A stretch of DNA of 64,000 nucleotides from a virus. Position numbers and translations under genes: made by a program. Location: IMG/VR virus record IMGVR_UViG_3300033149_006567, positions 1-64,000 of that record. One strand, written 5' to 3'. Numbering within the stretch: the first letter of the stretch is position 1; every line of letters starts with the position of its first letter. This document shows, in pieces, positions 8,181-54,027 of this stretch. Below the pieces are notes generated by a model. The model was not told the DNA's origin. It worked only from the letters and a program-made list of their open reading frames with translations, and made no database searches.

Positions 8181-8217
8181 ACGAGTGAAACTTTGCTGTT
8201 TTCTAATTTCTAATCCA

Positions 8218-8244
8218 AAAGGGGCGGCTTTGAGCCGCCCCTTT
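8218..8244 (+). terminator. Intrinsic terminator-like hairpin
   Basis: Perfect 12-bp stem aaaggggcggct / agccgccccttt with a ttg loop, intergenic after the tube gene. Confidence 0.75.
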
Positions 8245-8258
8245 CTCCAGGCCCTTAG

Positions 8259-9110: not shown

Positions 9111-9853
9111 CTCGCAATGTCTCATTGGCTAGAGAGGCCAACTTAGTTTACGACCAGGAATACTACAGTTCGTCTCAGGCTTGCATTTATTTCGGTGATA
9201 TCTGGATAGACGAAATCACTGGGATTCAGTATCAGATAGAGCATTCTAAGACTCCTATTTATGGATATGCTTCGACCCTTTATGATGCCATGGTTAGGGG
9301 TCCCCTTTTGGTTAGGGGTAGTTTTACCATTAATTTCAAAGAAGCTGGCTATTTATTTGTTGTTCTGAATGAGTATAAGAAACGTATGGGGCAGGGGAAT
9401 ACCCATCCCTATCAACGTGACGACAAGAACGGGACCTACGCTATTCAGCGGGCTAATATTGAGCGGCTAATGCAGAAAGACATAGACAACGTAGATTTGA
9501 ATAAATATCATCAAGATATAGCCGGGTTTGTGAGTGAGGCTCAAAGCCGAGGTAATCCTAAGGGCCTGGATACCGCAGAGAATATGTTTGAGGCTTTCGA
9601 GGATGTTGTGTGGGGGAAAAGGGGCGCCCAGGACAAGCTCAATGAGGCGGGCTATGTTGGGCGGCGCGTAGATGACCATAGACTGAATGGATTTGACATT
9701 TTTGTTCAATTTGGTGACTTTTCCAATGAACTTGCTAATCATACTATGCGTAAAATAGTGGATGTTCACATAGTGGGGGACAGTATGGTTATCGGAGGAG
9801 ACTCTGAGCCTCTTCAAGAGTCCTATGTTTTTTATGCCAAGAACGTTATCTAG
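9107..9853 (+). CDS. Tail tube-like protein (paralogue 3; possible tube initiator)
   Basis: YYSSSQACIYFGDIWIDEITGIQY...KTPIYGY...VRGSFTINF...ESYVFYAKN tube-fold pattern; ATGA overlap with the previous gene. Confidence 0.7.
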   Translation: MTRNVSLAREANLVYDQEYYSSSQACIYFGDIWIDEITGIQYQIEHSKTPIYGYASTLYDAMVRGPLLVRGSFTINFKEAGYLFVVLNEYKKRMGQGNTHPYQRDDKNGTYAIQRANIERLMQKDIDNVDLNKYHQDIAGFVSEAQSRGNPKGLDTAENMFEAFEDVVWGKRGAQDKLNEAGYVGRRVDDHRLNGFDIFVQFGDFSNELANHTMRKIVDVHIVGDSMVIGGDSEPLQESYVFYAKNVI

Positions 9854-9914: not shown

Positions 9915-10358
9915 ATGGCTGATACCGAAGAAAAAAAAGTTTCTGAGGAAGTAACCCCGGAGGAGGAGCGAGAACAGTTTATTAGTTCTCTAATGGAAGC
10001 TCTTAATAAGTTTTCTAACGCTCCGAGTGAAGACCAGATTTCTGGATGGAAAACTGAGCACGGAGAAATTTTTGCCTCTGGTTTTTCTGAGGATGAAGTC
10101 TATATATGGAGGCCTTTAACGCGGGAAGAGCACCGAGATTCTCTTCGTAAATTGCGAGAGACCGAGCAGAGCACGGGGGTTCCCGTGGACGAGGGAGTAT
10201 TCAAAGAGGATGTAACTACGACTTGTCTTTTGTGGTCTTCTCACCCTTCGATGCTCCAGAAAAAGGCCGGAACCATAGAGATGCTTTTTGAGCAGATAAT
10301 GAGTCGCTCTAATTTTATGGATCCACGTTTAGCAACTCAGATGGTTATCAAGTTGTAG
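9915..10358 (+). CDS. Tail assembly chaperone 1
   Basis: Lies between tube and tape-measure genes; acidic; WKTEHGEIF...YIWRPLTREE...KAGTIEML motifs. Confidence 0.65.
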   Translation: MADTEEKKVSEEVTPEEEREQFISSLMEALNKFSNAPSEDQISGWKTEHGEIFASGFSEDEVYIWRPLTREEHRDSLRKLRETEQSTGVPVDEGVFKEDVTTTCLLWSSHPSMLQKKAGTIEMLFEQIMSRSNFMDPRLATQMVIKL

Positions 10359-10362
10359 CGGC

Positions 10363-11325
10363 GTGAAACGCAAGCCCCCCTTTCTCACTATCCTCCCAGA
10401 TGGCCTAGAAGTCCCCTGGAAGCCATTGACTGTCGGCGAGTATCTTAAGCTTATATCAGATCCCTACCTCTCTTTTGATGAGCTAGAAGATATTATATTC
10501 AGCAAATGTGTGTTAGATGAGTATCTGGTAAACAAAATAGATACTATTAAAGCAGGCATTATTCCGACTGTAGTAAGTGGGATACTGGCGAATAGTGTCC
10601 CCAATAACCTTCAAGAATCCCAGATGTTGCTCGATTATTATCGAGTTCAAGTGGATAAAAACTATCTAGAGGAATTGGTTTTAACTATTTTGCTAGCTTT
10701 TCCGGCTTATAAGCCCGAAGATGTTTATGAATTAGATTTGCAAGATCTTATGTATCGATTGGCCCTAGCAGAAAGAAAGTTGTTGATAACCGGGATGCTT
10801 CAGAAGCCTTTCAATTTATTTGACCCTGAAAAAGCCAAAAAGGCCAATAAATCTAAACCGAAAATGGATCCTCACGATTTTAAAAAGCAATGGGAGAAGT
10901 CTCAGAGGTGGTCTGAAATAAGACCAGGTTTTTCTGAAATGCCAGATTATTCTCCGCCTGTCCCTGAGTATGCTGGAGAAAAAACCGTTATCAGAAAAGA
11001 AGATACACCTCCTGCAGAATTGGTGACATCTGGGACCGAAACAGATGCTGGTTTGCTTCAGGAAAAGATGGTCAGAGAGACAATTCCATTTTATTCAGAC
11101 TACTTGGAGATGGTTAAGAAGGGTGATAAAATAACACCAGAGAAGATTAAGTCTCCCGCTCAGAGAGAAAAAGAGGCCAAGGAAAGAGTGGAAGTCAGCA
11201 AGAAAGAACTCGCCAAACAGCTTGCCCAGCAGAGAAAGAAGGAGACTCAGGAGCAGAAACGTATAAATAGCTTATTCGAAAAGGGATTAACTAAGAAGCA
11301 GAAGAAAAAGATATCTAAGAAATGA
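10363..11325 (+). CDS. Tail assembly chaperone 2 (paralogous N-terminus, long basic C-terminus)
   Basis: WKPLTVGEY...CVL...KAGIIPTV mirrors chaperone 1; position before the tape-measure-like gene. Confidence 0.6.
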   Translation: MKRKPPFLTILPDGLEVPWKPLTVGEYLKLISDPYLSFDELEDIIFSKCVLDEYLVNKIDTIKAGIIPTVVSGILANSVPNNLQESQMLLDYYRVQVDKNYLEELVLTILLAFPAYKPEDVYELDLQDLMYRLALAERKLLITGMLQKPFNLFDPEKAKKANKSKPKMDPHDFKKQWEKSQRWSEIRPGFSEMPDYSPPVPEYAGEKTVIRKEDTPPAELVTSGTETDAGLLQEKMVRETIPFYSDYLEMVKKGDKITPEKIKSPAQREKEAKERVEVSKKELAKQLAQQRKKETQEQKRINSLFEKGLTKKQKKKISKK

Positions 11326-11500: not shown

Positions 11501-14500
11501 GTGGGAAATAATTCGAAAAACGGCACCTGGACAAAATTTAATTCTCATCAGAATGTCCCCTATTCTCAGCTACAAGATCGTTGGCGTTCAGGTTCTCAAG
11601 ACCCTCAGGGTTCCTCTTGGCCTGCTTGGCGCAATGTCGGTCTTTTTGGAGGAGCCTTGGCCGGGGCGCATCTTCTCGGGAAAGCTCGTGTGGGCGGAAG
11701 GCCCATGTACGACAGGTTCTGGGGAGTCCTTAGAGGCCTAGAAGAATACAGTCCAGCTCAATTTCTCAGAACTTTCCAATTGGGTAGTTTTTTTAGCCAA
11801 TTTACTTCTACTGCAGCAGCTGAATCTTTTTATTCTCCAGATGTTTTCCTTAAAAATGAAGGCTTAAGAACTTATATGGAAGCCCTCATAGGTGGTGGGA
11901 CTAAAACGGCTCATCGCCTAATGCTTGAGGGGGCGACTTTCCGGGGAGGACGTCTTTATTGGGGGGCTAGTGAAGAAATAGCTCTCCGTCATGCCGGTGT
12001 AATACTCAATCCTCCATTTGCTAAGGGTGTGCAGACTCCTGCTGCTCGTTGGTCTGCTGCTTATGCCAGGTCTTTAGGTATCAAGGACTACGCGGCGACT
12101 TGGCGAGGACCTAAGCTTGAAAAGATGTTTGGGCTATCGGTTACTGAAGGAGAGCGGTTTGCCGCCCATATTATTGGTGGTCAGAGTAGGCTTCAGCATT
12201 GGTGGCGGATGGGTTCGGCCTGGGGGACCGAATGGGTAGGTCGTTTTAATCGCCTTCTTTATGATCCGGTTGAAATGCCTATTATTTCTCAGGCAGTTCG
12301 GGGAGCGACTAAAGCGGTCAGGAAGTTAAGTGGTGGAAGATTAGCTCTCAAGTATGGTTTCGGAGTTAAACCTGCTGGAGGGCTTTCTATGCTCGCGAGG
12401 TTGGGCCTGAAATGGGGTTTAGTCGCTGGGGCAGGCCTGACCCTTTGGAATGAAATTGATCGCCTTACACGCCAATCTGAGGCGTTTGAGGGCACATTAT
12501 TCGAGGAGGGGACGACTTATGGCCTGGCTTCTCTCTGGGCAAAGGCAAATATCTCGATTTCGGGAGCAGCAGAAACTCTAGGGTTGCATAGTTTTAGAGA
12601 ATGGCAGGAAGAAGTGGCTCCTGGTAGTACCAGTTTGCTAAAATTGGCAGCCTTTCCAGCCATAGGTGCGATTGCCGGTCCGGCAGGTATGTGGGGGCAG
12701 AGAGTCTTTAGGACTGCTCGCGGTCAGATCGCGGGTCAGAGTCTAGAGGCTGCTGCCCAAGCAGCCAAGATTGCTGGCAGAGAGTTCGGGGAAGGATGGT
12801 TCGGCAAATTAGCTAAAGGAGTAATGGAGAAAGTTCCGTTGCTTCGAGGCACAACTCCGATGAAATTCGCGGCGCTTTTAGGAGCGGCCGCTGGCACCGC
12901 CCTAGTTGCCCCATTTATTCCAGGAGCTCTAGTTCCCTCAGAAAGACCAGAAGAGTTAAGGGCTATTTATTCGGGCGAGAAAGAAGTTCCTATCAGGAAG
13001 GGAAGATTTTGGTTACCTTTCGGCCGTTCTGACGTTGCGGGTGGTCGTATTCAAAGATACCAACCGCATATTATTGCTAGGCTTCGAATGCGAGCCAAGG
13101 AAAAGGCCCTATGGGGAGAGGAAGCAGATAAGCTTAGTGAGTTTGAGAAGCTCTATCTAAAGGAATTCACTTATCACCTTGAAAATAGAGATCAATATGG
13201 GTACGCATTTCCTATCAGTTCGTTGCCCTTTGAGGATGTGCCTTTAGTGGGGCCTTTGCTGGCTCATACATTAGGTAAATGGATCAAGCCTCCCAGATTG
13301 CTCCGTACGGAAGAATGGGTGCGTGAAAGAGGGGGTGGAGTTGAATATGCTCCTGAGCCCTTAGGGTATGGAGAGGAATATCATCCAGAGTTAGGAGAAA
13401 TACCGAGGGGGGCTCCCGCAAGTCCATATGATTTAAAATCCTTAATAAGGGAGCAGACTTACCGCATGACAGAGGCCTTTGGGCTTTCGGGATTTGTTGC
13501 TACTGCTATTAAAGAAAAACTTACTGGTACTCAAGAGTTTTTTGCAGAGAGAACTGAATTGGAAAGTTTTCGGAGAGCTCACGGTGCTAAGAGATCCTAT
13601 TGGGAGCAAGAGATCGGCGATCCTGGATTCACGGAATTTTTTAGGCGTTTATATCCCCATAGAGTGAGATCTGTTAATTTCTATAATCCTCTCGAGTCAG
13701 GTGCTCCCAGTTGGTTGCCAGGAGCCGGAGAGAGATCACCTAATTTTCAACATGGAGCCGTGTATGCAAAAGTGCCCCTTGGGGAGCTTCGTTTGCCTGG
13801 CCCTGGATACGAAGCTAGATATCCGGAGTTAGAAGGAGTTGCTCCCGAGAATTACCCACTTGTTCATCAACACAAAATATTGGCTGATGTTGCAAGATAT
13901 AGCAACAAATTCAGGGAGATATCTCACAAAGTGAGACGAGCTAGAAAAACCGAGGATTGGGGGGAACATGAAGAGCGCATTTATCAGCAAACCTTGGAAC
14001 AATTACGCGCTCGTAGAGAACGTAGAGAGTTTCATGAGTATCAGCATCTTGAGCCGTATGGATCACAGGAAGATTACAAGACCTTTGAGTCCACTGTCCT
14101 GGCGGAGATCAATAGGTCAAAGGCTGCTGGAGAAAAAGAAGAAGGAGTTGTTAATTCAATATTTGGGGGCTATTGGGAATGGCTTTCTCATAGTGCCGAG
14201 ACTTCGGCAGAACAGCTGACTCCGTTTGCCCCGGTTTCTAAACTATTGCATATGAGAGACGCCATAGAGGACTATAAACAGTCCCAGTGGCTGAGCAATG
14301 AATATGCCTTTTGGCAGAATCCAGTAGAAAACTTTTTGGCTCCTTTCGCGACTTCTACGGCCCATGCATTCGGTGCTGATGCAACTCCGAGCAGAACTAA
14401 TCTGGTTAGATCTGTAGAGGAATATTTTGATACATTAAAGTATATAAAATATCGCCGGTTAGCGATGGAAGCTCAAGTTTCTGGAGATATGGAGAAAGCC

Positions 14501-15307
14501 AAGGAGTATTCCCAAAAACAAAAAGAAACTTTGTTTGGAATGGATCCTTATACCAGGAATGCAAGGGCTATTTACCGAGCTCTTCCCAGGAGAGAAAGGG
14601 ATTATTATCAGAGCTTTGTTAATGTTGAAACTCCCGGAGAACGAGCTAAGATATTAAAGATGATTCCTCGGAATGAGAAGGGTTTTTATCTGGCTCAATG
14701 GCAGTTAAGGTACGCCGATAAATTACAGAAGGCCGTTAAAGAGGGAGTGATTACTGGTGAGTTAGCAGACATGGCTACTCGACAGGTAGACATGGTTATG
14801 GCGCAGAGAAAGCACGAGGGGATGCCTTCCAACCAGGAACTGTTCCATGAGTACCTAGGGAGCCGCCACAAGGGAGAAAGTTACCCGGAGTGGTATCGAA
14901 GGACCAAGTTGTTGCCTAGGAAATTAGCGGGTATGGGGCTTCCGGGGCCGGATTTCGTTGGGTTTCACCCGAGTGTAGACCTAGAGGATGTTAAACTTAA
15001 ATTGGTCCAGAATATGGCCGAGAATATTCATAATTTTGACTTGTGGGATGATAGGGCTAGAGGATTAAAATACAAGCCGTATATCAATGACGGAATTGTG
15101 GAGGATTTAGTTTCTCCCCAATTGGAGGAGGGGGAAATTCGGACTAGACTAGATAATATATTCGGAAAATACAATATACGTGGGGGACAGTATCATATGA
15201 ATGAAATTAACTCCACATCTGGTAGGAATTCTGTTAATATAAATGTGAGGCATCGGAGAGATAGAGAAGTTAAAAGAAGAATAAGAGAGCAGCTAAGTGG
15301 CTTCTGA
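11501..15307 (+). CDS. Tape-measure-like / ejected virion protein
   Basis: 1268 aa directly after the chaperones; helical, with Ala/Gly-rich hydrophobic segments (GLFGGALAGAHLLG, WGLVAGAGLTLW, FAALLGAAAGTALVAPFI); start codon uncertain. Confidence 0.6.
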   Translation: MGNNSKNGTWTKFNSHQNVPYSQLQDRWRSGSQDPQGSSWPAWRNVGLFGGALAGAHLLGKARVGGRPMYDRFWGVLRGLEEYSPAQFLRTFQLGSFFSQFTSTAAAESFYSPDVFLKNEGLRTYMEALIGGGTKTAHRLMLEGATFRGGRLYWGASEEIALRHAGVILNPPFAKGVQTPAARWSAAYARSLGIKDYAATWRGPKLEKMFGLSVTEGERFAAHIIGGQSRLQHWWRMGSAWGTEWVGRFNRLLYDPVEMPIISQAVRGATKAVRKLSGGRLALKYGFGVKPAGGLSMLARLGLKWGLVAGAGLTLWNEIDRLTRQSEAFEGTLFEEGTTYGLASLWAKANISISGAAETLGLHSFREWQEEVAPGSTSLLKLAAFPAIGAIAGPAGMWGQRVFRTARGQIAGQSLEAAAQAAKIAGREFGEGWFGKLAKGVMEKVPLLRGTTPMKFAALLGAAAGTALVAPFIPGALVPSERPEELRAIYSGEKEVPIRKGRFWLPFGRSDVAGGRIQRYQPHIIARLRMRAKEKALWGEEADKLSEFEKLYLKEFTYHLENRDQYGYAFPISSLPFEDVPLVGPLLAHTLGKWIKPPRLLRTEEWVRERGGGVEYAPEPLGYGEEYHPELGEIPRGAPASPYDLKSLIREQTYRMTEAFGLSGFVATAIKEKLTGTQEFFAERTELESFRRAHGAKRSYWEQEIGDPGFTEFFRRLYPHRVRSVNFYNPLESGAPSWLPGAGERSPNFQHGAVYAKVPLGELRLPGPGYEARYPELEGVAPENYPLVHQHKILADVARYSNKFREISHKVRRARKTEDWGEHEERIYQQTLEQLRARRERREFHEYQHLEPYGSQEDYKTFESTVLAEINRSKAAGEKEEGVVNSIFGGYWEWLSHSAETSAEQLTPFAPVSKLLHMRDAIEDYKQSQWLSNEYAFWQNPVENFLAPFATSTAHAFGADATPSRTNLVRSVEEYFDTLKYIKYRRLAMEAQVSGDMEKAKEYSQKQKETLFGMDPYTRNARAIYRALPRRERDYYQSFVNVETPGERAKILKMIPRNEKGFYLAQWQLRYADKLQKAVKEGVITGELADMATRQVDMVMAQRKHEGMPSNQELFHEYLGSRHKGESYPEWYRRTKLLPRKLAGMGLPGPDFVGFHPSVDLEDVKLKLVQNMAENIHNFDLWDDRARGLKYKPYINDGIVEDLVSPQLEEGEIRTRLDNIFGKYNIRGGQYHMNEINSTSGRNSVNINVRHRRDREVKRRIREQLSGF

Positions 15308-18300
15308 TCCTAAAAAAATAGAGCGAGAGTTTACCTTTAAGGACGTTCTCATCGGCGCCCCCCTGGCTGCCGGATTGGGAATGAGCGCGTGGAGATTCGC
15401 CAAGGAAGTTCCAACCGCGTTTTCTCAAACTGTTAGGTCTGGTTTTGGTGAGGACTTTTTGAGGCAGGTTGCCCCTTATGCCTCAAGTGTGGCCGGTACT
15501 GATGCGGCGATAAACAATCTCGTCCGTTCAGCTTCATCTGTTAGGGAGCCCGCAGAGGCTGTGTTTGCTTGGAAAGCGGCTGCTAGTGCCATTCCAGATC
15601 CATTCGGCAAGGCCATTTCTCCTGAAGGATTAACAGAGCCTTTCGCTTCTATTGGGTCAGTTTTCCGAGAGCATTTACCTCGCTTTAGTCCTAGTTATAG
15701 ACTCAAATTTATGAGACTTTTTCAGACTAACCTAAAAGCTATTCAAAAGCAGAAATCTGTAGCGGGAGTAGATTTTGATTTGGCAAAATTAGCTCCCGCT
15801 GAAATAGCGCCCGTAACGCCCGAGTCTTATCTTCGAGCCCCCCTTAGAGGTCCCGAAGACTTACCTGTCCATTTAAAAACTTATGGACAGAGGATACAAA
15901 ATACTCTTGGTGACGTGGGGATGGAATGGGTTTCTCGCCCAGAATGGCAGGGCGCAGGATTGGGGGCTTACAGAATGCGATTAGGTCCCGGTTTGTCATT
16001 GAATATACCGAAATCTGTAGGGGGGCAGGCCCTACTTGGTCAGAATTTGGCCTCTCAGTATGCAGTGGGGGACTTTACTGTTTTCGATGAAGCGACCAGA
16101 AAAGTAACTCGGATGCCTTATGACGAGTATACTCTCTACAGATTTGAAAAGGAAATTCTTCCCAGATTGCGCCCGGGAGCGGAGAATGCTTTTGCTTCTA
16201 CTAGAGAAGCCCAGGCGGCCATAGATGCCTTGGGGAGGGAGCTAAGAGAGAAGGGAACTTTCCTTGGAGCGACTCCGCCTATGTTTCAAACTAGAGCTGC
16301 GCAGGGATATGGAACTCTTAGGTCTAGGGTTACTCATTTGGTTACTTCGAAGGGAAAGACCATCACGGCCCCAGAGGCCTTAAGAATCCCCGAGCTTAGA
16401 GCTTTAGTCGGTCCCGAATTGCGGGCGGCAGGAGTTTCTCCCAGTTCTATGGCAAAGGGAACTTTGTCTAGGTATAGCGCACAAAATCTTTTTCTTGGCG
16501 GCGCAGCGGCTCCGGAAAGTAGGCGCTTAGAGCAGGCGTTCAGAGAATGGGAATTTTTTAAAGGAGATCTTCCAGCTAGAGAGGCTGAGCGATTTAGCTG
16601 GCTTTTGTCTCCTGAATATAAACGCCTTTATGGAGAACGAGGAGCTTTGCTCCATAGGACCGTTTTCGCTAAGCCGGAAGAAATGTCTCGTCTTGCTGAA
16701 AAAGCTCCGAGCTTAATCATGAGAGCGGGTGAAGGGGAGTGGGAGGTCAGCAAGGCTCTTATGGATTATATGAAGTCTGTGAGGAGCTCCCACATGGAGG
16801 TGCATCGTTTAACGACTGAGATGGCCGAGAACTTCATGGAGAAGGGCGGTGTGGGATATGCGAAGAGAGCTGTTTCTCTACCGGCAGGAATGGTCATTGG
16901 GTATGGTCCAAGCGGAGAGATGGTGAATCTTTCCAGGAAGTCGACTTTGTTGGGATACGGAAGGGTCGGAGAAAATCTAAAGTTGTATTTTACCGAAATG
17001 GCGCCTGAGGAAATTCACAAACAAATGTTTGGGGCCAAGGGGGGGGTAGTTCCAAGGAGGAGGGGCGTTTTCTCTATCATGTCTGAGGTCATGAGACTCC
17101 CTCAGGGAGCAGAGGCTAGAATGTCGGTTGGCATGCTTAAAAAGAATCCGCATTATCATACCATGCAAATGACGTCTGCCCTGTGGGATATACTGGGAGC
17201 CAAGCAGGCTGCGGGGCTTCCTGTCGGAGGCCTAGAAGACTTTATTTCCAGGCCAGCAGAAACGGTTCGTTTTCTAGAGCGGCGGGCCACGATGGGAGGG
17301 AAATATAGTCATCGGGCTTTTACCAAAAGCCTTCTTGGCATGGCGCAGGCTGGAGGTCTTTCAGCCGAGGAGTTTGGTCGGGTATTTGGTGGTGTTCCCG
17401 AGGTCTTCGGGGAAGGATGGGAAGCGAGTTTGGGCGGAGGTTTATCTGGAGCTGAACGGAGAGCAATGGAGGAGTTGTCTCCTGTTGGCACGGTGTTTTC
17501 TACTTATGCAGGGATGTTAGAGCAGAGGATCCCCTCGGGCGGGGGAGCGACTATCGAGCCCCGCCTTTTCACACTCCTAGAGGCCGGGCAATACGGAGAG
17601 TTTGGTTCCAAGATTTCTGCAGAAATAGCTCGTCGAGCTGCCTTGGATAATCCAGAAGCCCTATTGGTTTCAGAAGAGGTAAGACGATCTTTAGCTTCAT
17701 TTGTTGGACAGGCAGAAAGTTCGTGGGCCCAAGATGTTTTCAAGTTGCAGTCCAGGTTTTCTCGAGAGGCCTTCGAGGGCTTCCTTGAGAAGGGTGGTTG
17801 GCTAGAAATGCCAGGCAAGACTGGAAACATATACGTGCCTGGCATGGATAAGGTGAGACAAATGCTGCCTCATGAATTGCCTGGAGGAGAGCAGGCTTTT
17901 ACTGAATTCGCTAAGACGTATTCTCGGCTAGCCAGAGCAGCTTCGGATGTAGAAGCAGGAAGGCTGCCGCTGGAAGAGTTCCTGGGGGCAGAGGGCGTCT
18001 ACGAGGGGGCGATGAGGGCTATTCAAAGAGAGCACGCTCCTTTTGGAAAGGGCTTGTTCGGTTTGGCCCGTAAAGGGACTCAGAGGGTCGCTGGTTCTAG
18101 GTTTTTGGAGTTGGCCTCTACGATAGGGGCTTCTGAGGCCGCAGAAAATGCTTTTCTTAAAACTGCCACGCCCTTTGATGTGGGACTATCGGATTATTGG
18201 TTTGAAAAGATGATTCAAGATTCAGAACGTCAAGGCGTTATGGAGGCGGCTGAGACAGCAGCGGTAAGGGCTCGTTGGGAAAGCGGAGAGGCGGTTGGCG

Positions 18301-19760
18301 GGATGTTTTGGAGGCATCCCTTTACCACAGAATATTCTGCCATGCCATTGAGATTTCGGAGAATAGCTGGGGCCGGAAAAGAGGCCCTTGCCTTAATGCC
18401 GGAAATCAATGTGAACATCATGGGAAAGACGGTATCTATTAGTGCCCTAGTGGCCGCTATGGGAGACAAGGATAAGGATACTGCAGGCTTTATGATACTC
18501 GGGGGGGATCTAGAAAAAAAAGCAAGGGATTTCTGGTTTAGAAAGGGAAACATTGAGACTCAGCGCTACTTAGACCAAGTGGTTAAGACGCAGTTACTAA
18601 AACCTCAGGCTGCTAGTGCAGTTGCTGAAATGGAAGCTTTGACTGCCAAGCAGTTATCTGAAATTGCTATTGAAAAGCTTAGCATGCCTAGCCAATATGT
18701 TGGGAGAACGTCTCTCGCTTTGACCAAAATGAAAAGGGCGCTGACTTATATGCCCGAAGGGTACATGAGAGAGCAGGCCGGTTTATTGACAGCCTTAATG
18801 GAGCAGGGGCCAATAGCAGGAAAGCATATACCGGCGGAAGAGCTGGCCGGGAATATACGAGCTTTTGAGGCTTCTTTTCAGGGACTGGAGAGTGCCATTC
18901 TTGGAGGTAGGGGCCGAGATATAGAATACTATTTTAAGGAAACGTTAGGGGCTACTCAAGAATCTCGTATGGTTAGGGATATATTGACTCAAGGAGTTCA
19001 ACTTACAGAGGAGAAAGCTAAGGAGCTATCTAGATTGATGGGGCCAGGAGTGGAAATTTCTCCTCGACTTGGTGGCACGCAATTACAAGAGACTGCGGAT
19101 TTTATGGCCGAAGCTATGCGTCGCTATGCTGGCACAGAAGAAGCTCGGATGTTTGATTTGTTAACGGGTCGAGGGGATGTGAGGGCAGCCAATGATATGA
19201 GGAAATATTTGCAGAGGAGCAATATCGAAGCCGCGAAGCAAGGCATCAATAAGTTGCGAAGTGGTTTCGGCAAGGTAGTTAGTAAAATAAAATTGGCAGC
19301 AGAAAACATAGTCGGGGCTGAAGGCGGGAAATTATTGAAGTATGCGAAACCGTTAGCCATCGGGACTGGAGCAACGATGCTTTTGGCCGCCGTTCTTAGT
19401 CGCCCCTCGGAAACTCTCGGGCCATCAGGTGATAGAATCCCAGGGGATCGCTCTCGGTCAGTTCCTCGCCGAGGAAGAGGGTCGTATAGAACTCCAGAGA
19501 ATCTTCATCCACCTTCTCAGGTGTTGGGTAGTCCAACTGCTCCTACTAGGCTGACGGTTCCATCTGCTCGAATTACATCGGAAAAGGGTTATAATATAAA
19601 TGCGCGGATTGCGATGGAGCAAGAAAATGTAGACCCAGTTAGATTAGCGCAAGAACTAGAACGTGGCGCTGGCAATACCGACAGGGTAAATGTTAATATC
19701 AGTGATAACCGAGCAACTTTAAACATGGATCAATTGCTTAACGAGCTTTATAATGGCTGA
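15297..19760 (+). CDS. Large virion protein; putative single-chain two-barrel (DPBB) RNA polymerase-like protein
   Basis: Ordered motifs resembling RNAP beta (LKLYFTE...HKQMFGAKGGV) then beta-prime (QRVAGSRF; DVGLS; FWRHP; MGDKDKDTAGFMI); hydrophobic segments near both termini. Confidence 0.55.
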   Translation: MASDPKKIEREFTFKDVLIGAPLAAGLGMSAWRFAKEVPTAFSQTVRSGFGEDFLRQVAPYASSVAGTDAAINNLVRSASSVREPAEAVFAWKAAASAIPDPFGKAISPEGLTEPFASIGSVFREHLPRFSPSYRLKFMRLFQTNLKAIQKQKSVAGVDFDLAKLAPAEIAPVTPESYLRAPLRGPEDLPVHLKTYGQRIQNTLGDVGMEWVSRPEWQGAGLGAYRMRLGPGLSLNIPKSVGGQALLGQNLASQYAVGDFTVFDEATRKVTRMPYDEYTLYRFEKEILPRLRPGAENAFASTREAQAAIDALGRELREKGTFLGATPPMFQTRAAQGYGTLRSRVTHLVTSKGKTITAPEALRIPELRALVGPELRAAGVSPSSMAKGTLSRYSAQNLFLGGAAAPESRRLEQAFREWEFFKGDLPAREAERFSWLLSPEYKRLYGERGALLHRTVFAKPEEMSRLAEKAPSLIMRAGEGEWEVSKALMDYMKSVRSSHMEVHRLTTEMAENFMEKGGVGYAKRAVSLPAGMVIGYGPSGEMVNLSRKSTLLGYGRVGENLKLYFTEMAPEEIHKQMFGAKGGVVPRRRGVFSIMSEVMRLPQGAEARMSVGMLKKNPHYHTMQMTSALWDILGAKQAAGLPVGGLEDFISRPAETVRFLERRATMGGKYSHRAFTKSLLGMAQAGGLSAEEFGRVFGGVPEVFGEGWEASLGGGLSGAERRAMEELSPVGTVFSTYAGMLEQRIPSGGGATIEPRLFTLLEAGQYGEFGSKISAEIARRAALDNPEALLVSEEVRRSLASFVGQAESSWAQDVFKLQSRFSREAFEGFLEKGGWLEMPGKTGNIYVPGMDKVRQMLPHELPGGEQAFTEFAKTYSRLARAASDVEAGRLPLEEFLGAEGVYEGAMRAIQREHAPFGKGLFGLARKGTQRVAGSRFLELASTIGASEAAENAFLKTATPFDVGLSDYWFEKMIQDSERQGVMEAAETAAVRARWESGEAVGGMFWRHPFTTEYSAMPLRFRRIAGAGKEALALMPEINVNIMGKTVSISALVAAMGDKDKDTAGFMILGGDLEKKARDFWFRKGNIETQRYLDQVVKTQLLKPQAASAVAEMEALTAKQLSEIAIEKLSMPSQYVGRTSLALTKMKRALTYMPEGYMREQAGLLTALMEQGPIAGKHIPAEELAGNIRAFEASFQGLESAILGGRGRDIEYYFKETLGATQESRMVRDILTQGVQLTEEKAKELSRLMGPGVEISPRLGGTQLQETADFMAEAMRRYAGTEEARMFDLLTGRGDVRAANDMRKYLQRSNIEAAKQGINKLRSGFGKVVSKIKLAAENIVGAEGGKLLKYAKPLAIGTGATMLLAAVLSRPSETLGPSGDRIPGDRSRSVPRRGRGSYRTPENLHPPSQVLGSPTAPTRLTVPSARITSEKGYNINARIAMEQENVDPVRLAQELERGAGNTDRVNVNISDNRATLNMDQLLNELYNG

Positions 19761-22700
19761 TGGCGGAAATTTTATAATTAATGACATAGAGCTGACGATA
19801 CCCCCTCAGCAGATAAAGATAGACCACCAGTCCTTTAATCATCGCTGGCAGACTCTCCGGACTCGAGGCTCTAAGAAGGTCAAGTCAGGGTATTCTATTG
19901 TAAATATCAGAGTTCGCGCCACTTTTGTTGATCATTCTGATTTTGAAAAACTAAGGAAACTGGTGGCTCAACTTAGGGTCACTCCATTTGCTTATGTGGA
20001 AAACCAGCATATTCGCAATGCCGTTCTAGAAGGCTCCCAGGAAGAGAATCTGGTTTTAGCTTTAAAGTCGATCAATATTCGTAAGCCAGCCAGGACTGTC
20101 AATTCCATAAATGTTGTGTTTGATTTTGCCTGGTTCAATTATAAGCCCTATACTTTGCTTTGGCAGTATCGAGTTGATATATTTAGTAATTTGGCGACTA
20201 ATGATCCCAAGTACTCTTATGCCTGGAAGATGATGTATGAGGCTGAGATTAAGAAGGGAGGCTATATCCCGATTAAGCCCCCCGGAGCTTCTGGAGAAGA
20301 GCTTTCAGATAGTTTGATGATCGGATTTAGAGAGTTTATTTCTCCCCTGATGGAGGGGGATGACTCCAAGAGTATTACCCCAGAAGATGCTATTAAAAAA
20401 TATTTTGAACTGCAAGGGAAAATAAAAAGTCAGGCTGAAAAAAGTCTTAGGGGACACGGAGCTTCTGAGTTTCCACAGCCCGTAGAGACTACTGGGGACT
20501 ACGTGGCAGAAGCCAAAAACTTATTGGGGTACTCTACCTCTATGGAGCTGGATTTATTTTCAGAAATACAGGGAGAGATAGGAGGGAAGAAGTTTACCTA
20601 CAAGGGGTTGGATTGGGAGCCCCTATACAAAGACGATAAGCCTCTCACCAAGGATGGCCGCGCAATATTTAGCCGCAGGACAGCCCTAGATGCCAAAAGA
20701 TCTGATATAACGGTGACTGGGGTAGACATATCCTTTCAGCATAATTTAGCTATGATGCCAGTTCTGGGATATTCTCATGCTACTTTTCAGCATACAGGTA
20801 GTGTGGATTCTGTTGTTTCTCTTCAGATGATAGCTAGAAGTGAAGAGGCGGTCAAAAGAATTACTCATTTTTACAATGCAGTTAAAAATGCGGAAATAAA
20901 ATACAAGTCGATTCCTGCTGGTAGTCGCAATTTGTATGTTAGCAATGACATACTGAATCTTTGCGGAATTCAAGAGTGCATAGTCGAACAGTTTTTTATT
21001 GACACAATACCAGGTCAGATAGGGACTTATTCAATTAGTTTGGTTTTGTCAGAAAATAGTTATCCAGATTTAGGAGAGAAATTTGTTTCAGAGTTTGCTT
21101 TTTCTTCAAAATGGCTGAGGAGCGAGATAGCTAAGATTTTAGAGGGGTATGTCAAATTGGCCCCGGGATTTAAAGAAAAGTATGTTTTCGGCAAGAAGTT
21201 TTCAACGCGGCGAGTGGAATCTTTTGAGAATAGAGTGTATGAGACTACAATACTTTCGTCGGATGAAAGTAAAAAGAAGCTGTATGATGCGACCAAGCAG
21301 TACGCAGAATTGATGAGTGGGTTGTATAACGAGCTAGAGGAATTATTGGGCGAAGGGAAGGGGGTACTTGGGGAGTATGGAGATTCAGCGCTTGGATATC
21401 AGTTGGCGAGCTTTTTATCTCTTCGAGATGAAGGAGTTTTTCCGGGGATACATAAAATACAAAGTGATTTAATGGATAACGTAGTCCTCAATAAGACCAA
21501 GAACGCCAGTCGTGCTGGAAAAGAGAACACTGGGATATCGGATACTTTGGGGGCTTTAGGCGGGGACTACGACGCTGTAACTCGCCCTTCTGCTACGGGG
21601 GCGACGGAGGGTAGTTTTGGAAATGCCCTGAACAGCTTGGGTCAAAAGAGTGCGCAGATACACGCTCTTTATCGAGGAAGTTCTGGAGAGTTTACAGACG
21701 AGGAAAGACGGCAAAAAGACGCTTTGACCCAGGAGTATGAGTGGGCCTTGAACGTCCTAAGGAGGTCTTCTAGGGAGTACGTGAGTAATCGTCATTTGGA
21801 AAGTAAAGAAGAGTATCAGCGGCTTTTAAGTCAGTATAAAAATAATGAGGATGTTATCTCCCAAGGGCTAAGTGGGGCCGCCCTGAAGGCTTACTGGGAG
21901 GAGTTCAGGACTGTTAGCGCAAGGCGTTTGGCAGAAAAGCGCTTGGGGCAAAGGGGTCTGCAAGATCTCATATTCGACATAGTAAGAGATTATATGGGGC
22001 AATATGTTTCTCTTTTGGATCGATTAATTAATCCCGGGGAGATATTGAAGGAAAGGGAGTTTTTAGACATAGCCAAGCAGGTTAAGGAGTCTCTTCTGAA
22101 AAATGTGGGGTCAGAATGCTATCCAGATTTTCCCTTAAGAGAGGTTGCAGAGGCCCTGCAGGTTGAAAAGGGCGACATCAATTATGAGTTGGGAGAGCTA
22201 CTCTTTTCAGAATGGAAAGATAAGGGCGACTACATGAAGGGTTTAAGTCCAGCCTGTTTGATTAATCCGGATTTTTATCTTATCAGCGAGACTTTTGATA
22301 AGGCTGGGAATTTGGTTGATGAAGCTTCTATCAAAAAGGTCAAAGAAATATCCAAAAGTAGTTTGAGCAATTATGAACAAGCGCATAAAAAATGGCTTGG
22401 TAGAGTTGAAGAGAATTATCAAAAACGGACACAGGCAATGAATTCTTATAGTCGGAATTCATTTCAAAGTTTGACGAAAAAGGACAAAGAACGGGTAAAT
22501 AAGGGGAAGGCGAGTGCTTTCGGGGGTGAAGCAGTAAGAAGCTATATGAAACAACAGTCAGATTACATGGATCCCTACGATTTTCCCGAAGGGGGTTATG
22601 CGTATGACACCCCCACAGCCTTAGCTCTCGAAGGCGCAAATCCTGTTGAATTTTCGACCATTGATGCTGGCGTTGATGTTGCACTAGGTCAAGAAGATAT

Positions 22701-25683
22701 GAATGACTATTGGATGTGCTACGGGCGGGAATCTGTTTATTTAGAGGAGCCAGAGGTCAAAAAAGAAGAGCGCATTAGACATATATATGGGGGATACGAG
22801 ATACTGGATGGGACGAAACCCAGTGTGTGGGGGAAGCGAGAGGATATAAGAGCAGGTTCGCAGGGAGCGCCGGATAAATGGATTTGGCCCGTTCCGTCTT
22901 TTGGTAGAGGTCCCAACAATATATCGAGTTATTATGGAGAGAGATGGGATCCCGTGGAGGAAGAAAAAGGGGAATACGTTAAGGCATTTCATTATGGAAT
23001 TGACATAGTAAATGGGATAAGCGGCAAGTCTTCTAGGGGGGCGACAGTTGTTGCCGCAGCCCCAGGCAGGGTTGTTTTTGCAAAAGGAGGCCGAGAGAGA
23101 AAAAGGAATGTCGATAACGAGTATGTAGAGGGAGATAAGGGAGAAACGAGTCAAATACTTATTCAGCATGGTGGAGGGTTTTATACCAGGTACAAGCATG
23201 TAACAGGATATGAAAAGTGGCTAGACCCCAATTCTCCCTCTTATTTTCGCAAAAAGCCCTTTGTTAAGGGTGGAGAGGAAATAGCAAAAGTTGGGAATGA
23301 GGGCTATTCTACTGGAGCCCATTTACATTTCGAAACACTTGCAGGAGGGAAAGAGACTAAAAGTTATGCCAAAGATCCATTACTAGTTTTGGCAGGAGAC
23401 TACAACGTTTCTGCCCCAATAACCGTTGGAGAAAATGCTGAGGCGGAGGATTTACTGGCTCGTTTTATCGGAGAGTTTGAAAGAGACTTATATCTAGGGC
23501 AGGGCAAAGGGGTGATGCGGGCATATCCCACTTTTAAACTTTATTTTATAGAAAGTGATTTCGGGGAACGAAAAGAGTATTCTTTTGACGATTTCTTTTC
23601 TTATTCCTCGGTTAAAAATATACAGCTGGTTAAGCATAAGCATATACCCGCAGACGTGTGCATATTGGAGTTGACGAATATATCTGGGGTATTAAGTAAC
23701 CGGAAGTTTCGGAACGCCCTAGATGACCAAACTGACAGGATAGTCAGTCAAGTAAGGCCCATTAGCAAAGAAGACGCAAAGTCTCCCGAGAGGACAAATA
23801 CGAAAGAGGAGAATCCGCTAGTATCGATGTTACTGCAGGCGGGAGTTCAAGTGCAGCTTAGGCTAGGGTATAACAATAACCCTCAATTTTTAGAAACACC
23901 GTTTAATGGTGTGATAACAGAAGTTCAGTTTACTGAATCTGATGATTTAGTCCGAGTTGTGGCCCAAAGCTATGGCACTCAATTAGTTCAAAGGTTTAAG
24001 GGAATAGATAAAAGTATAAAAAGGGGCGGGCTTTTTAGTACGTCTGGAGACACGGGTTCGCTATTGGAAGAGCTACTTGGTTCTACAGAGGTTACTCATT
24101 TCGGTCGATGGGAGCCGGGGTCAAAGGGCCAGGATGAGCTTTATAATACCCTCACCAATAGGTGGGAGTTTAACCCTAAACCTCATGCCTTAAATATATT
24201 TGCGCCAGGGGGGGATTTCTTTTTTAACTTATTTAAATCTGCTCCAAATTACTATATGTTTCGGACTACCATTTGGGATGTAGCACAAGAGATGACATTG
24301 AGGCATCCCGGGTATATTTGCCAAGCTGTTCCTTACGAGGGAGAGTGGGGACCTCGGATGACTCTTTATTTCGGACTTCCCAATCAGCTTTATTACAGTA
24401 GAGACCCGAATCCTCAGGAAAAGGAGTTCGCTAGTGTTCTTGGAAGTTTAGCGGAGAAGATAGAAAAGAATAAAGAACTAGATGATAGCGGAGAGCAGCT
24501 TGCCAAAACATTGAAGGATTCGGCCTCCTCTATAAATCCAGAGAAATTTAATGAGCAGGTGGAGAAGACCGCCAGAGATAATTACAGCAAGAAGAGTAGA
24601 AGTCAGCATTTTGATAAGCTTAAGAAGATTTTTGCGAGGAGCACAGGCTTGAATAAGCCATTTAGGGCTTATCATTTGGTTACAAGCGAGTCACATATAA
24701 TAGCCAACAATATTTGGCCCGTAGCTCCCAGACGACTTTATAACGCGGTGAATCTTCAATACAGTGACGACACCATATTTTTCGACGAAGTTGAAGACGG
24801 CAAGACCGGAAAACTGGAGTCTAGTGACCCCGAAGTGCTTTCTATGAAGGCGGATGTTGATATACCGGACGAAGACATAAGAGAGTTTTTCGCTAGATAT
24901 CCGAATTGCATAGGAGAAGAGCAGGCCAAAAGATATGCCCTAGGACTTCTTTGGGAAGCTCAGAAGAAAGCGTACCAGGGGAACCTGATTGTGATAGGGA
25001 ATCCAAGAATTAAGCCTTATGATGTTGTAATAATTGCAGATAGCTACACTGACATGTATGGCATGGTGGAAGTAGAGCAGGTTGTTCACAAGTTTTCTCA
25101 GGAAAATGGTTTTGTTACGGAAATAAAACCCAATATGTTAATTCATGTAAATCAGACCGCGACTATGACGACAGACGAGGTTATGGGTATGGTGGCGGCT
25201 GAGGTTTTGGGGAAACTTGACATGGATACCGCTTCCAGACTTTTAACGCAAGGGGTTCAGCTTAGTCGGGAGGCCGATAAATCGGTCAGCGGGAAAATAG
25301 CAAAGGCGATTACGGATAACTCAGAGGCTGTAGCGCTATCTACAATGGCGATCAGTATGCCTGCTGGGCTTGCGATACATAGCTGTCTTTGGTTATTCAG
25401 GAAATTTATGGCGCATTCTCAGTTTAATCACCCCTTTAGGTACGAGCCATTAATTTATCGAGGACAACCGATGCTTCAAGGGTTAAAGGCTAGATATAGT
25501 CAAAAAGGATTTTTCTGGTTAAAGGGAGAGTTTATCGAAGAAGGCCTCGAGGGGCTTAAAAATAAATACGAAAATCTTAAGGAGCAGTTTGCTCCAGAAA
25601 ATTGGTTTGATACTCGAGGAGATTTCGGAGATTATTTCTGGGGTATCAAACAGGGCTATGCCGGGCCTAAGTTGGGAGAATAA
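19753..25683 (+). CDS. Multidomain baseplate hub / tail-associated lysin with internal M23 peptidase
   Basis: M23 motifs WIWPV...HYGID...YKHV...GYSTGAHLHFE at about 22879-23390; C-terminal hub-like YQGNLIVIGNPRIKPYD...VEQVVHKFS..GFVTEI. Confidence 0.75.
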   Translation: MADGGNFIINDIELTIPPQQIKIDHQSFNHRWQTLRTRGSKKVKSGYSIVNIRVRATFVDHSDFEKLRKLVAQLRVTPFAYVENQHIRNAVLEGSQEENLVLALKSINIRKPARTVNSINVVFDFAWFNYKPYTLLWQYRVDIFSNLATNDPKYSYAWKMMYEAEIKKGGYIPIKPPGASGEELSDSLMIGFREFISPLMEGDDSKSITPEDAIKKYFELQGKIKSQAEKSLRGHGASEFPQPVETTGDYVAEAKNLLGYSTSMELDLFSEIQGEIGGKKFTYKGLDWEPLYKDDKPLTKDGRAIFSRRTALDAKRSDITVTGVDISFQHNLAMMPVLGYSHATFQHTGSVDSVVSLQMIARSEEAVKRITHFYNAVKNAEIKYKSIPAGSRNLYVSNDILNLCGIQECIVEQFFIDTIPGQIGTYSISLVLSENSYPDLGEKFVSEFAFSSKWLRSEIAKILEGYVKLAPGFKEKYVFGKKFSTRRVESFENRVYETTILSSDESKKKLYDATKQYAELMSGLYNELEELLGEGKGVLGEYGDSALGYQLASFLSLRDEGVFPGIHKIQSDLMDNVVLNKTKNASRAGKENTGISDTLGALGGDYDAVTRPSATGATEGSFGNALNSLGQKSAQIHALYRGSSGEFTDEERRQKDALTQEYEWALNVLRRSSREYVSNRHLESKEEYQRLLSQYKNNEDVISQGLSGAALKAYWEEFRTVSARRLAEKRLGQRGLQDLIFDIVRDYMGQYVSLLDRLINPGEILKEREFLDIAKQVKESLLKNVGSECYPDFPLREVAEALQVEKGDINYELGELLFSEWKDKGDYMKGLSPACLINPDFYLISETFDKAGNLVDEASIKKVKEISKSSLSNYEQAHKKWLGRVEENYQKRTQAMNSYSRNSFQSLTKKDKERVNKGKASAFGGEAVRSYMKQQSDYMDPYDFPEGGYAYDTPTALALEGANPVEFSTIDAGVDVALGQEDMNDYWMCYGRESVYLEEPEVKKEERIRHIYGGYEILDGTKPSVWGKREDIRAGSQGAPDKWIWPVPSFGRGPNNISSYYGERWDPVEEEKGEYVKAFHYGIDIVNGISGKSSRGATVVAAAPGRVVFAKGGRERKRNVDNEYVEGDKGETSQILIQHGGGFYTRYKHVTGYEKWLDPNSPSYFRKKPFVKGGEEIAKVGNEGYSTGAHLHFETLAGGKETKSYAKDPLLVLAGDYNVSAPITVGENAEAEDLLARFIGEFERDLYLGQGKGVMRAYPTFKLYFIESDFGERKEYSFDDFFSYSSVKNIQLVKHKHIPADVCILELTNISGVLSNRKFRNALDDQTDRIVSQVRPISKEDAKSPERTNTKEENPLVSMLLQAGVQVQLRLGYNNNPQFLETPFNGVITEVQFTESDDLVRVVAQSYGTQLVQRFKGIDKSIKRGGLFSTSGDTGSLLEELLGSTEVTHFGRWEPGSKGQDELYNTLTNRWEFNPKPHALNIFAPGGDFFFNLFKSAPNYYMFRTTIWDVAQEMTLRHPGYICQAVPYEGEWGPRMTLYFGLPNQLYYSRDPNPQEKEFASVLGSLAEKIEKNKELDDSGEQLAKTLKDSASSINPEKFNEQVEKTARDNYSKKSRSQHFDKLKKIFARSTGLNKPFRAYHLVTSESHIIANNIWPVAPRRLYNAVNLQYSDDTIFFDEVEDGKTGKLESSDPEVLSMKADVDIPDEDIREFFARYPNCIGEEQAKRYALGLLWEAQKKAYQGNLIVIGNPRIKPYDVVIIADSYTDMYGMVEVEQVVHKFSQENGFVTEIKPNMLIHVNQTATMTTDEVMGMVAAEVLGKLDMDTASRLLTQGVQLSREADKSVSGKIAKAITDNSEAVALSTMAISMPAGLAIHSCLWLFRKFMAHSQFNHPFRYEPLIYRGQPMLQGLKARYSQKGFFWLKGEFIEEGLEGLKNKYENLKEQFAPENWFDTRGDFGDYFWGIKQGYAGPKLGE

Positions 25684-26421: not shown

Positions 26422-26907
26422 ATGCCAGGATTTTACGACTCAATAGATATGCGTTGGGACGACAATGGAGACTATTTGCTTTCCGAAGATGGTGATTTCC
26501 AGGATACATCGAGTGACACGATAGAGTCTTTTGTCGCCGAAATAAAGTCTGTTTTGCGTTCGGAATTGGGGGACTGGGAAAAGCACCCCAATTATGCAGC
26601 AGATTTAAGAGAGTTTATCGGGGAGCCGAACAATCCTGAGACGGCGAAGAGAATAGAGAATAGAATTATCTATTCTTTGGTTCAAAACAATGTCGTCTCC
26701 AGAAGTGATGTTAGTGCCAGATTGGTTCCGACTCGTCCTGATACGGGTTTGGTGATTCTGACGATTCAGGCCATGCCGACGGAGACCAATAGTTTGGGAG
26801 AAAGTGGGACTGTTTCGGTGGTCTTTGCGTTTAATTTAATTGAAGGCGGGATACTGTTTTTGGATTCAGAGCGAAAGATAAACTTGTTCCCGGTTACGGA
26901 GAGGTAG
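26422..26907 (+). CDS. gp25/gpW-like baseplate wedge (sheath initiator) protein
   Basis: GDYLLSEDGDF...LRSELGDWEKHPNYAADLREFIGEPN pattern; directly before baseplate J. Confidence 0.8.
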   Translation: MPGFYDSIDMRWDDNGDYLLSEDGDFQDTSSDTIESFVAEIKSVLRSELGDWEKHPNYAADLREFIGEPNNPETAKRIENRIIYSLVQNNVVSRSDVSARLVPTRPDTGLVILTIQAMPTETNSLGESGTVSVVFAFNLIEGGILFLDSERKINLFPVTER

Positions 26908-52732: not shown

Positions 52733-52745
52733 CCCGAGTCCCCAG

Positions 52746-54020: not shown

Positions 54021-54027
54021 GGAAAAA

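Follow-up and report, generated by a model that had tools for sequence, protein, structure and literature searches.

The 64,000-nucleotide (nt) stretch of viral DNA analyzed here, called the window (positions 1 to 64,000 of IMG/VR record IMGVR_UViG_3300033149_006567), is a single long plus-strand operon of phage structural genes. Within its tail module an open reading frame (ORF) at 15297-19760 on the + strand, with a GTG start, encodes a product of 1487 amino acids (aa). A preliminary description of this DNA, made from the letters alone, had placed a 1487-aa ORF at these positions and read it as a single-chain, two-barrel RNA polymerase (RNAP)-like protein; the ORF is present as described, and all seven motifs quoted for it (7/7) lie at the residues and bases given. 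From its predicted structure the protein almost certainly belongs to the two-barrel RNAP fold, and from its conserved residues it is probably an active nucleotide polymerase. The parts of the gene, with the basis for each assignment, are as follows.

15297..19760, + strand: the whole gene for a putative single-chain two-barrel RNA polymerase homologue, 1487 aa (ORF, overlaps, and homologue N termini)
15297..15440, + strand: aa 1-48, Ala/Gly-rich hydrophobic helix predicted with low confidence, a possible membrane or tail-lumen segment (pLDDT [predicted local distance difference test] <50)
15864..16586, + strand: aa 190-430, alpha/beta domain with a weak likeness to the N-terminal part of RNAP beta or second-largest subunits (structure matches)
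16584..17546, + strand: aa 430-750, predicted beta-like double-psi beta-barrel (DPBB-B) region with K575 and K581 (VIA-align and family alignment)
17994..18596, + strand: aa 900-1100, predicted beta-prime-like barrel (DPBB-A) with G933-S934-R935 (nt 18093-18101), the RHP motif, and the Asp triad (Foldseek, VIA-align, and alignment)
18597..18986, + strand: aa 1101-1230, long helix (aa 1117-1150) and helical hairpin at the position of a bridge helix and trigger loop (model alignments)
19317..19421, + strand: aa 1341-1375, conserved Gly/Ala-rich hydrophobic segment with the consensus KPLxxGFAAxLALAxxLS (family alignment)
19422..19757, + strand: aa 1376-1487, Pro-rich linker and conserved C-terminal module, N..RD.RSSL (homology to the C terminus of 0305phi8-36 gp146)

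The GTG sits within the end of the upstream gene, which encodes a 1268-aa protein, and overlaps its stop by 11 nt; the ATG of the downstream gene, for a 1976-aa protein, is at 19753, an overlap of 8 nt with the end of the polymerase gene. Because the homologues likewise start with "MA...", this N terminus supports the GTG start. In the beta-like half, GEGEWEVSKALM is aa 478-489 and LPAGMVIGYG is aa 528-537, followed by K575 (codon nt 17019-17021) and K581 (codon nt 17037-17039). Farther along are KGTQRVAGSRFLEL (aa 926-939, nt 18072-18113), DVGLSDYWFEKM (aa 961-972), R1006-H-P1008 (nt 18312-18320), and, 48 residues after RHP, the acidic loop D-K-D-K-D containing D1057, D1059, and D1061 (nt 18465-18479). 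The protein thus matches the pattern [RK]xPx{20,100}DxDxD, in which [RK]xP lies 20 to 100 residues before DxDxD, the filter used by Chaban et al. 2024 (PMC10770324). A DxDxD by itself is no rarity: by our estimate, about 0.2 are expected per 1487 aa at 5% Asp.

Standard searches were blind to this protein. The whole protein had no match in Pfam (E values up to 1), PHROGs, or NCBIfam; tblastn and megablast searches of 50,697 phage records found no match for it; and PDB sequences, searched with the single sequence and with the family profile, gave only noise-level calmodulin-like matches to the C-terminal helices (E ≥ 0.017). A word-indexed search of 5.8 billion proteins returned only the query itself, so an exhaustive HMMER search was needed. 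With phmmer, aa 402-1201 matched 154 proteins at an E value of ≤0.001, 82 of them at ≤1e-30, among 1.84 billion cluster representatives. Full-length relatives are almost all 1430-1610 aa long; the polymerase family is large, of nearly constant length, and wholly unannotated. A six-sequence profile found no copy in 185,579 prokaryote genomes, and there is therefore no sign of prophage copies.

Conservation was measured in a MAFFT alignment of 112 full-length homologues, which are 18-40% identical to the query (about 22%), with a mean column identity of 17%. Only eight columns are invariant: G535, R756, P848, P1008, D1057, D1059, D1061, and K1176. Because three of the eight are the Asp residues and a fourth is P1008, in homologues this diverged, the conservation of DxDxD is not due to chance. 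The preliminary description held that all three metal-binding Asp residues were retained, and each is present in 112/112 homologues. It had also proposed checking whether DxDxD, RxP, and the two lysines are conserved: R1006 is found in 110/112 and P1008 in 112/112, and each of the two lysine columns holds K in 107/112. Columns conserved at 90% or more include lysine columns 576 and 581, R925, G933, S934, R1006, S1014, E1169, and H1177. In the first lysine column MAFFT places Q576 of the query, not K575; because the query has an indel of one or two residues in that loop, K575 is the sensible equivalent.

The family consensus of the acidic loop is DxD[A/G]D. Among the homologues the pentads are DKDAD (37 sequences), DYDGD (4), and DFDGD (3), with DLDAD, DYDAD, DTDGD, and DVDGD also present. 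The "variant DKDKD" loop of the preliminary description does exist, but it is peculiar to this one protein and does not mark the family, in which the canonical DFDGD and DYDGD occur. Three consensus stretches resemble RNAP beta-prime motifs: GKGxGGLxRGxxxGSRFLT is like GKxGRxRxxLLGKRVDxSxRSV, RHPxIGPYSxQP like NRxPxLH, and SPxVGxAGDxDAD like NADFDGD. Among 30-residue stretches, conservation peaks at aa 1148-1177, 989-1018, 1046-1075, 1341-1370, and 912-941, which correspond to the catalytic barrel, the helical hairpin behind it, and the C-terminal hydrophobic segment. The most conserved stretch of all lies within aa 1101-1230, where K1176 is invariant and E1169 and H1177 nearly so; by region, aa 1341-1375 has the highest mean conservation (0.50).

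The predicted structure agrees with the motifs. AlphaFold2, given a 54-sequence alignment, modeled aa 430-1230 with a mean pLDDT of 89.3 and a pTM (predicted template modeling score) of 0.87; in what follows, model residue 1 is the start of this construct. In a Foldseek search of the PDB, the listed ranks 1 to 50 were all largest-subunit (beta-prime-type) RNAP chains, from bacterial, cyanobacterial, and plastid enzymes and the non-virion enzyme of phage AR9 (best E value, 2.5e-4; probability, 1.0), and many annotated viral RNAPs in BFVD also matched. When the model was compared with 48,161 representative chains by VIA-align, the top 19 were two-barrel polymerases. Matches obtained by VIA-align include the following.

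QDE-1: Z 12.8, 311 aligned, model 8-778
Maize RDR2: Z 10.0, model 5-777
P74-26 gp62, a non-virion single-chain RNAP: Z 10.0, model 10-774
AR9 non-virion RNAP (nvRNAP), beta-like chain: Z 9.6, model 1-320
Human Pol I largest subunit: Z 9.4, model 375-801
African swine fever virus (ASFV) RPB2: Z 9.3, model 1-316
phiKZ nvRNAP: Z 9.0, model 1-317
P23-45 gp96: Z 8.7 and 8.3 over 284-291 residues, model 11-783 and 11-792

Beta subunits overall match model residues 1-320 at Z 8.1-9.6 (bacterial beta matches the first half at 8.4), and Pol I A, archaeal A', and Mycobacterium tuberculosis beta-prime match 375-801 at Z 8.0-9.4. Because the two halves align in this way, the beta-like part comes first and the beta-prime-like part second, which is the fusion order that the preliminary description proposed; both double-psi beta-barrels, on which that reading was staked, are in the predicted structure. 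Isolated DPBB domains (VAT-N, CDC48-N, and designed DPBBs) match model residues 504-650 at a Z of about 7-8. The alignments to QDE-1, gp96, and beta-prime reach model residues 778-801 and so cover the helix at aa 1117-1150 and the hairpin; we infer from them that aa 1101-1230 may be functionally equivalent to the bridge helix and trigger loop.

A second model, of aa 1-450 (pLDDT, 82.1), consists of the low-confidence hydrophobic aa 1-48, a helical bundle at aa 50-170, and a well-predicted alpha/beta part at aa 190-430. The last matches vaccinia Rpo132 (Z 6.7, 229 aligned), the AR9 nvRNAP chain 7s00_c (Z 5.8), plastid beta (Z 5.7), and bacterial beta (6j9e_C, Z 5.5; 6vvt_C, E value of 0.088). 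These scores are middling, yet the alpha/beta matches all point to one family, the second-largest RNAP subunits. Because the best matches are to the N-terminal parts of those subunits, the modeled polymerase homology probably spans about aa 190-1230.

The tail module around the gene, all on the + strand, is arranged as follows.

5540-7465, + strand: tail sheath
7521-9853, + strand: three tail-tube paralogues
9915-11325, + strand: two genes at the chaperone position
11501..15307, + strand: upstream giant, 1268 aa, orthologue of ME3 gp035 and of the virion protein 0305phi8-36 gp145
19753..25683, + strand: downstream giant, 1976 aa, with an M23 peptidase at aa 1080-1201 (nt 22990-23355)
26422-26907, + strand: gp25-like baseplate gene
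26912-28138, + strand: gp6/J-like wedge baseplate gene

Small genes stand between the 1976-aa giant, which is the orthologue of the 0305phi8-36 gp147 baseplate hub and of ME3 gp037, and the gp25-like gene. Homologues of the polymerase gene occur on 15 IMG/VR contigs, which are up to 188.6 kb long; the gene follows the 1268-aa giant in 15/15 and precedes the M23 giant in all 14 that continue that far. The tail module of these related contigs is otherwise collinear, save for gaps of small genes. One automated lead, an Atlas feature with a score of 0.86, pointed the 1487-aa protein to a tape measure protein (TMP) cluster. It has no match to TMP families in Pfam, PHROGs, or NCBIfam, and about 1000 of its residues form a globular alpha/beta polymerase core, and we reject the tape measure assignment. 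Nor are polymerase and tape measure joined in one polypeptide, as the ORFs are separate and the neighboring giants distinct at 15/15 loci. The 1268-aa giant, with hydrophobic segments rich in Gly/Ala at aa 379-397 and at aa 456-474, is, from its sequence, a plausible tape measure or channel former and a better candidate for that role than the polymerase gene.

The closest cultured phages are Acinetobacter phage ME3, Bacillus phage 0305phi8-36, Moorella phage MTATph1, Bacillus phage WH1, Edson, and KLEB27-3. The three-giant arrangement recurs in ME3 (gp035/036/037) and 0305phi8-36 (gp145/146/147). The flanking giants are clear orthologues (1268-aa giant versus ME3 gp035, E value of 5e-69), and the middle gene is much more diverged: standard filters missed both ME3 gp036 and 0305phi8-36 gp146, which became visible only with HMMER --max. 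ME3 (vB_AbaM_ME3) gp036, a 1603-aa "hypothetical protein" (YP_009595868.1), occupies the slot between the orthologues of the flanking giants, has REP...DHDQD at aa 1178-1225, and matches the profile weakly in the beta-like barrel (LGYDxxGxP...KxFxxxK). The BFVD model A0A172Q021_2, which from its length we take to be the second half of ME3 gp036, is among the top Foldseek matches to the polymerase model (E value of 2.7e-7). Neither BLAST nor standard HMMER matched gp036 to the family, from which it is too diverged; it probably represents a sister family rather than a member.

ME3 also encodes A0A172Q0S6, a 798-aa protein near the right genome end (NC_041884.1, 224456-226849, - strand) that Foldseek matched at an E value of 5.7e-6 over 563 columns. 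No [DE]x[DE]x[DE] motif occurs anywhere in its 798 aa. We did not retain it as a candidate second polymerase, since it has neither the acidic triad nor a homologue in this lineage.

The middle giant of 0305phi8-36, gp146, is a 2537-aa "hypothetical tape measure protein" in the same slot as the polymerase gene, found in virions by mass spectrometry according to its GenBank note. Residues 1323-1474 of the family profile match gp146 residues 2397-2540 (22 bits), and the C-terminal hydrophobic segment with the terminal module matches at 34.6 bits (E value of 5.3e-10 per genome); in DNA coordinates, the C-terminal anchor module of window 19270-19757 is common to gp146 (segment L017, 14624-22237). 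The same phage has a separate polymerase-like protein, gp99, which resembles RNA-dependent RNA polymerases (RdRPs), is encoded outside the structural module, toward the right end of the genome, and, unlike gp146, has no mass spectrometry note in its record. Iyer et al. 2021 also note the RdRP-like gp99 of 0305phi8-36 (PMC7824862). Because gp146 keeps the anchor module without the polymerase core while the phage has a separate gp99, these sequences suggest that the core was gained or lost in the middle-giant slot, and the middle giant of this phage group seems to be modular.

The nearest functional parallel is gp96 of Thermus phage P23-45. Its first 1100 residues form an active two-barrel RNAP that lacks a clamp and is joined to the tape measure; gp96 transcribes the pre-early genes and is thought to act at the pore during DNA entry (PMC10770324). 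gp96 (also in P74-26, G20c, and TSP4; PDB 8H2M and 8H2N) is likewise a single chain, beta-like and then beta-prime-like, with RxP and DxDxD, and both proteins come from the tape measure region, with hydrophobic segments and an association with an M23-type peptidase. They differ in that gp96 is a 5002-aa polypeptide of polymerase, tape measure, and peptidase in a phage with a long noncontractile tail, whereas the 1487-aa protein has a gene to itself, flanked by two further giants, in a jumbo-type phage with a contractile tail; it also has an additional helical region at the N terminus and a C-terminal anchor module of its own. A further difference is that sequence searches here found no second, non-virion polymerase.

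QDE-1, the best structural match, the eukaryotic RDR enzymes, and YonO-type proteins (PF05183) have the same barrel order fused in one chain; the 1487-aa protein is set apart from them by other flanking domains, membrane-like segments, and its tail-gene context. The genes for YonO and 0305phi8-36 gp99 lie outside structural modules, and the PF05183 profile has no match in the 1487-aa protein. gp66 of crAss-like phage phi14:2 and the virion RNAPs of the phiKZ/AR9 type are two-barrel enzymes that travel in the virion and serve early transcription. gp66 forms a domain within a podovirus-like cargo protein, and the phiKZ/AR9 enzymes are head-located, have 4-5 subunits, and are encoded away from tail genes. 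The AR9 and phiKZ non-virion enzymes, the only solved structures of those groups among the matches, fit both model halves (Z 9.0-9.6). Two further BFVD proteins, the "minor tail protein" A0A8S5SD80_1 of Siphoviridae sp. ctnpt50 (E value of 2e-7) and the uncharacterized A0A075BUT7_2 of Microcystis phage MaMV-DC (E value of 9e-5), match the model and are candidates for tail-associated polymerases in other phage groups.

A second polymerase was sought in the rest of the genome. The record that holds the window is 97.8 kb long and contains no other large ORF with [RK]xP...DxDxD; motif scans turned up nothing but small or antisense ORFs that we regard as spurious. The Pfam models for RdRP (PF05183) and Rpb1 (PF00623) had no match in this record, nor in five related records, among them a complete 188.6-kb genome with terminal repeats (IMGVR_UViG_3300021603_000001). 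The T7-like model PF00940 also had none, a null that is uninformative because that model matched no control genome. The complete relative has a single large ORF with DxDxD, this gene's own homologue (1564 aa, RHP...DYDAD). The large nonstructural ORFs scanned there encode ribonucleotide reductase, DNA polymerase III alpha, two AAA proteins (one ClpB-like), and GDP-mannose dehydratase, with two intein/homing-endonuclease ORFs besides; several of the large ORFs contain inteins. The rest of the 97.8-kb record encodes a DnaG primase with an intein, a split DNA polymerase III alpha, RecA, and similar replication genes. A 216-aa ORF gave a subthreshold match to sigma-70 region 2 (PF04542; record 79278-79385, E value of 0.004, 13.9 bits) and no match in a Pfam scan; if real, the match would hint that the host polymerase is used for later genes. 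A k-mer search of the 97.8-kb record for repeated promoter-like motifs found only a coding tandem repeat.

These observations are best explained, in our view, by a competent two-barrel RNAP that is borne in the virion, injected, and transcribes the first phage genes, a reading of the whole that we favor somewhat over its negation. The beta-like N-terminal domain and barrel (about aa 190-750) would supply the two lysines and the beta-prime-like barrel (about aa 900-1100) the Mg-binding Asp triad, followed to about aa 1230 by the region resembling a bridge helix and trigger loop. The position in the operon and the overlapping stops and starts suggest that the protein is expressed late, together with the tail genes. 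It would then be built into the particle in or beside the tail lumen or hub, alongside the two neighboring giants, and attached through its hydrophobic segment and C-terminal module; the conserved slot, the conserved hydrophobic segment, and a C-terminal module in common with the virion protein gp146 all point to such incorporation. Sheath contraction would eject it into the host, where it would transcribe the first phage genes without the host polymerase and may help draw the DNA in, an action for which P23-45 gp96 is a precedent. On balance, it is somewhat more likely than not that the protein is virion-borne and injected. We give about even weight to the broader proposition that a large and as yet unannotated lineage of contractile-tailed, jumbo-type phages delivers a one-chain, cellular-type RNAP through or with the tail. 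Clustered at 50% identity, this lineage comprises at least 150 groups, and cultured phages, ME3 among them, have sister forms. Because sequence searches of the one complete genome examined reveal no other polymerase, the enzyme may start all phage transcription and also help pull the genome in.

Several results weigh against a virion-borne transcriptase. A folded core of about 1000 residues has no obvious fit in the lumen of the tail tube. The preliminary description had cited terminal hydrophobic segments in support of packaging and ejection; these reach the Kyte-Doolittle threshold of 1.4 in 51/112 (N-terminal) and 75/112 (C-terminal) homologues, but they are only moderate in this protein, in which no 19-residue window reaches that value. 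hhalign found no match of the family to 0305phi8-36 gp99 and no sequence-profile similarity to gp96 (probability of 0.1%), nulls in line with a published observation that the surroundings of DxDxD are the only sequence these families have in common. gp146 was searched and has neither DxDxD nor a detectable polymerase core, so the tail slot need not hold a polymerase. Finally, the 97.8-kb record is about 51% complete, and a diverged second polymerase could escape the searches.

An active phage RNA polymerase that is merely encoded in the tail operon and acts, unpackaged, in the infected cell, for example on late genes, would also agree with the fold and the catalytic residues, and the polymerase-like gp99 of 0305phi8-36, outside the structural module and with no mass spectrometry note, fits this explanation. 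A polymerase made only with the late tail genes could not start infection, however, and the sequence searches found no earlier polymerase. The slot between two virion giants is kept in all 15 related contigs, the gene overlaps both neighbors translationally, and the hydrophobic segment and virion-protein C-terminal module would have no obvious use in a soluble enzyme; we therefore consider an unpackaged enzyme improbable. Equally unlikely, we think, is a structural or ejection protein in which the polymerase fold is reused for DNA gripping or translocation, priming, or QDE-1-like RNA-templated synthesis; the preliminary description had named a repurposed fold as one of its two alternatives. 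That the best structural match is QDE-1, which is both an RdRP and a DNA-dependent polymerase (Z 12.8), that the gene sits in the tape measure region, and that 0305phi8-36 fills the slot with a protein lacking DxDxD would all suit such reuse; yet the full catalytic signature is invariant over 112 very diverged sequences, which argues that nucleotidyl transfer itself is under selection, and the closest tail-associated functional precedent, gp96, is a true transcriptase (PMC10770324).

Double-psi barrels also occur outside polymerases. Barrels of the RlpA/MltA/3D type are common in tail lysins, and those enzymes have the isolated DPBB fold in common. Lysins are frequent in giant tail-associated proteins, and an M23 peptidase is encoded by the next gene, so the barrels might belong to a cell-wall-degrading domain, with DxDxD a coincidental acidic loop. 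This we find hardly credible: no lytic transglycosylase is among the top 50 structural matches, the matches extend over 230-340 residues covering both barrels and the helices between and after them and are all to RNA polymerases, and the RxP, GxxxGSR, and lysine motifs are polymerase specific. The peptidoglycan hydrolase reading is essentially refuted by these matches and motifs.

Virion-carried RNAPs free a phage from the host transcription machinery from the first second of infection. To our knowledge, only a few kinds have been shown experimentally (those of N4, crAss-like gp66, the multisubunit phiKZ/AR9 enzymes, and P23-45 gp96), and we know of none but gp96 that is tied to the tail. A tail-tied two-barrel virion RNAP is thus already known from gp96; what is new here is the structural setting and the sequence family of one that is tail-associated and presumably virion-borne. 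Our full-text literature search found the P23-45 paper and no report of a tail-module polymerase in contractile-tailed phages, ME3, or the 0305phi8-36 group, although a mention among the RNAP families of Drobysheva et al. 2021 is possible. A search of supplementary files of Chaban et al. 2024, the list of viruses that have two or more RNAPs among them, did not find ME3, Metrivirus, or 0305phi8-36. If our explanation is right, tail-associated two-barrel polymerases are widespread in big contractile-tailed phages, beyond the Thermus siphoviruses, and can stand alone as proteins that bring an anchor module of their own; gene order (the giant in the middle of the run from the chaperones to the hub) would then predict polymerases where sequence annotation fails. 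The family adds a deeply diverged branch to the tree of two-barrel polymerases, and it raises the mechanical question of how a core of about 1000 residues is stored in, and passes through, a contractile tail. The idea of a virion polymerase can be put to the test in cultured relatives such as ME3.

Some minor observations concern other genes. The three tail-tube paralogues (window 7521-9853) match phrog_9206, labeled "major head protein." The ME3 equivalent of the tube gene owes its head label solely to homology with the "major structural protein" of 0305phi8-36, which is a tail tube, and for this reason the phrog_9206 label looks like a propagated misannotation. Inteins are frequent in the lineage: one is in the DnaG-type primase (record 67382-70438), and in the complete relative they occur in an AAA protein, ribonucleotide reductase, and DNA polymerase III alpha; endonucleases of the HNH or LAGLIDADG type accompany them. 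DNA polymerase III alpha is apparently split in the record (83045-88419, - strand) into a 284-aa PHP-domain protein and a 906-aa protein with the polymerase core, fingers, HhH, and OB; RecA and a metallophosphatase are nearby. The ORF at 157-3258, whose 1033-aa product combines leucine-rich repeats with a Laminin_G_3/ConA-like lectin domain, contains four exact 69-bp tandem repeats (23-aa units; window 2785-3060); the product is probably a fiber or host recognition protein with a region of variable repeat length. Two group-1 glycosyltransferase-like genes lie amid the structural operon (window 52662-56292) and may glycosylate virion proteins.

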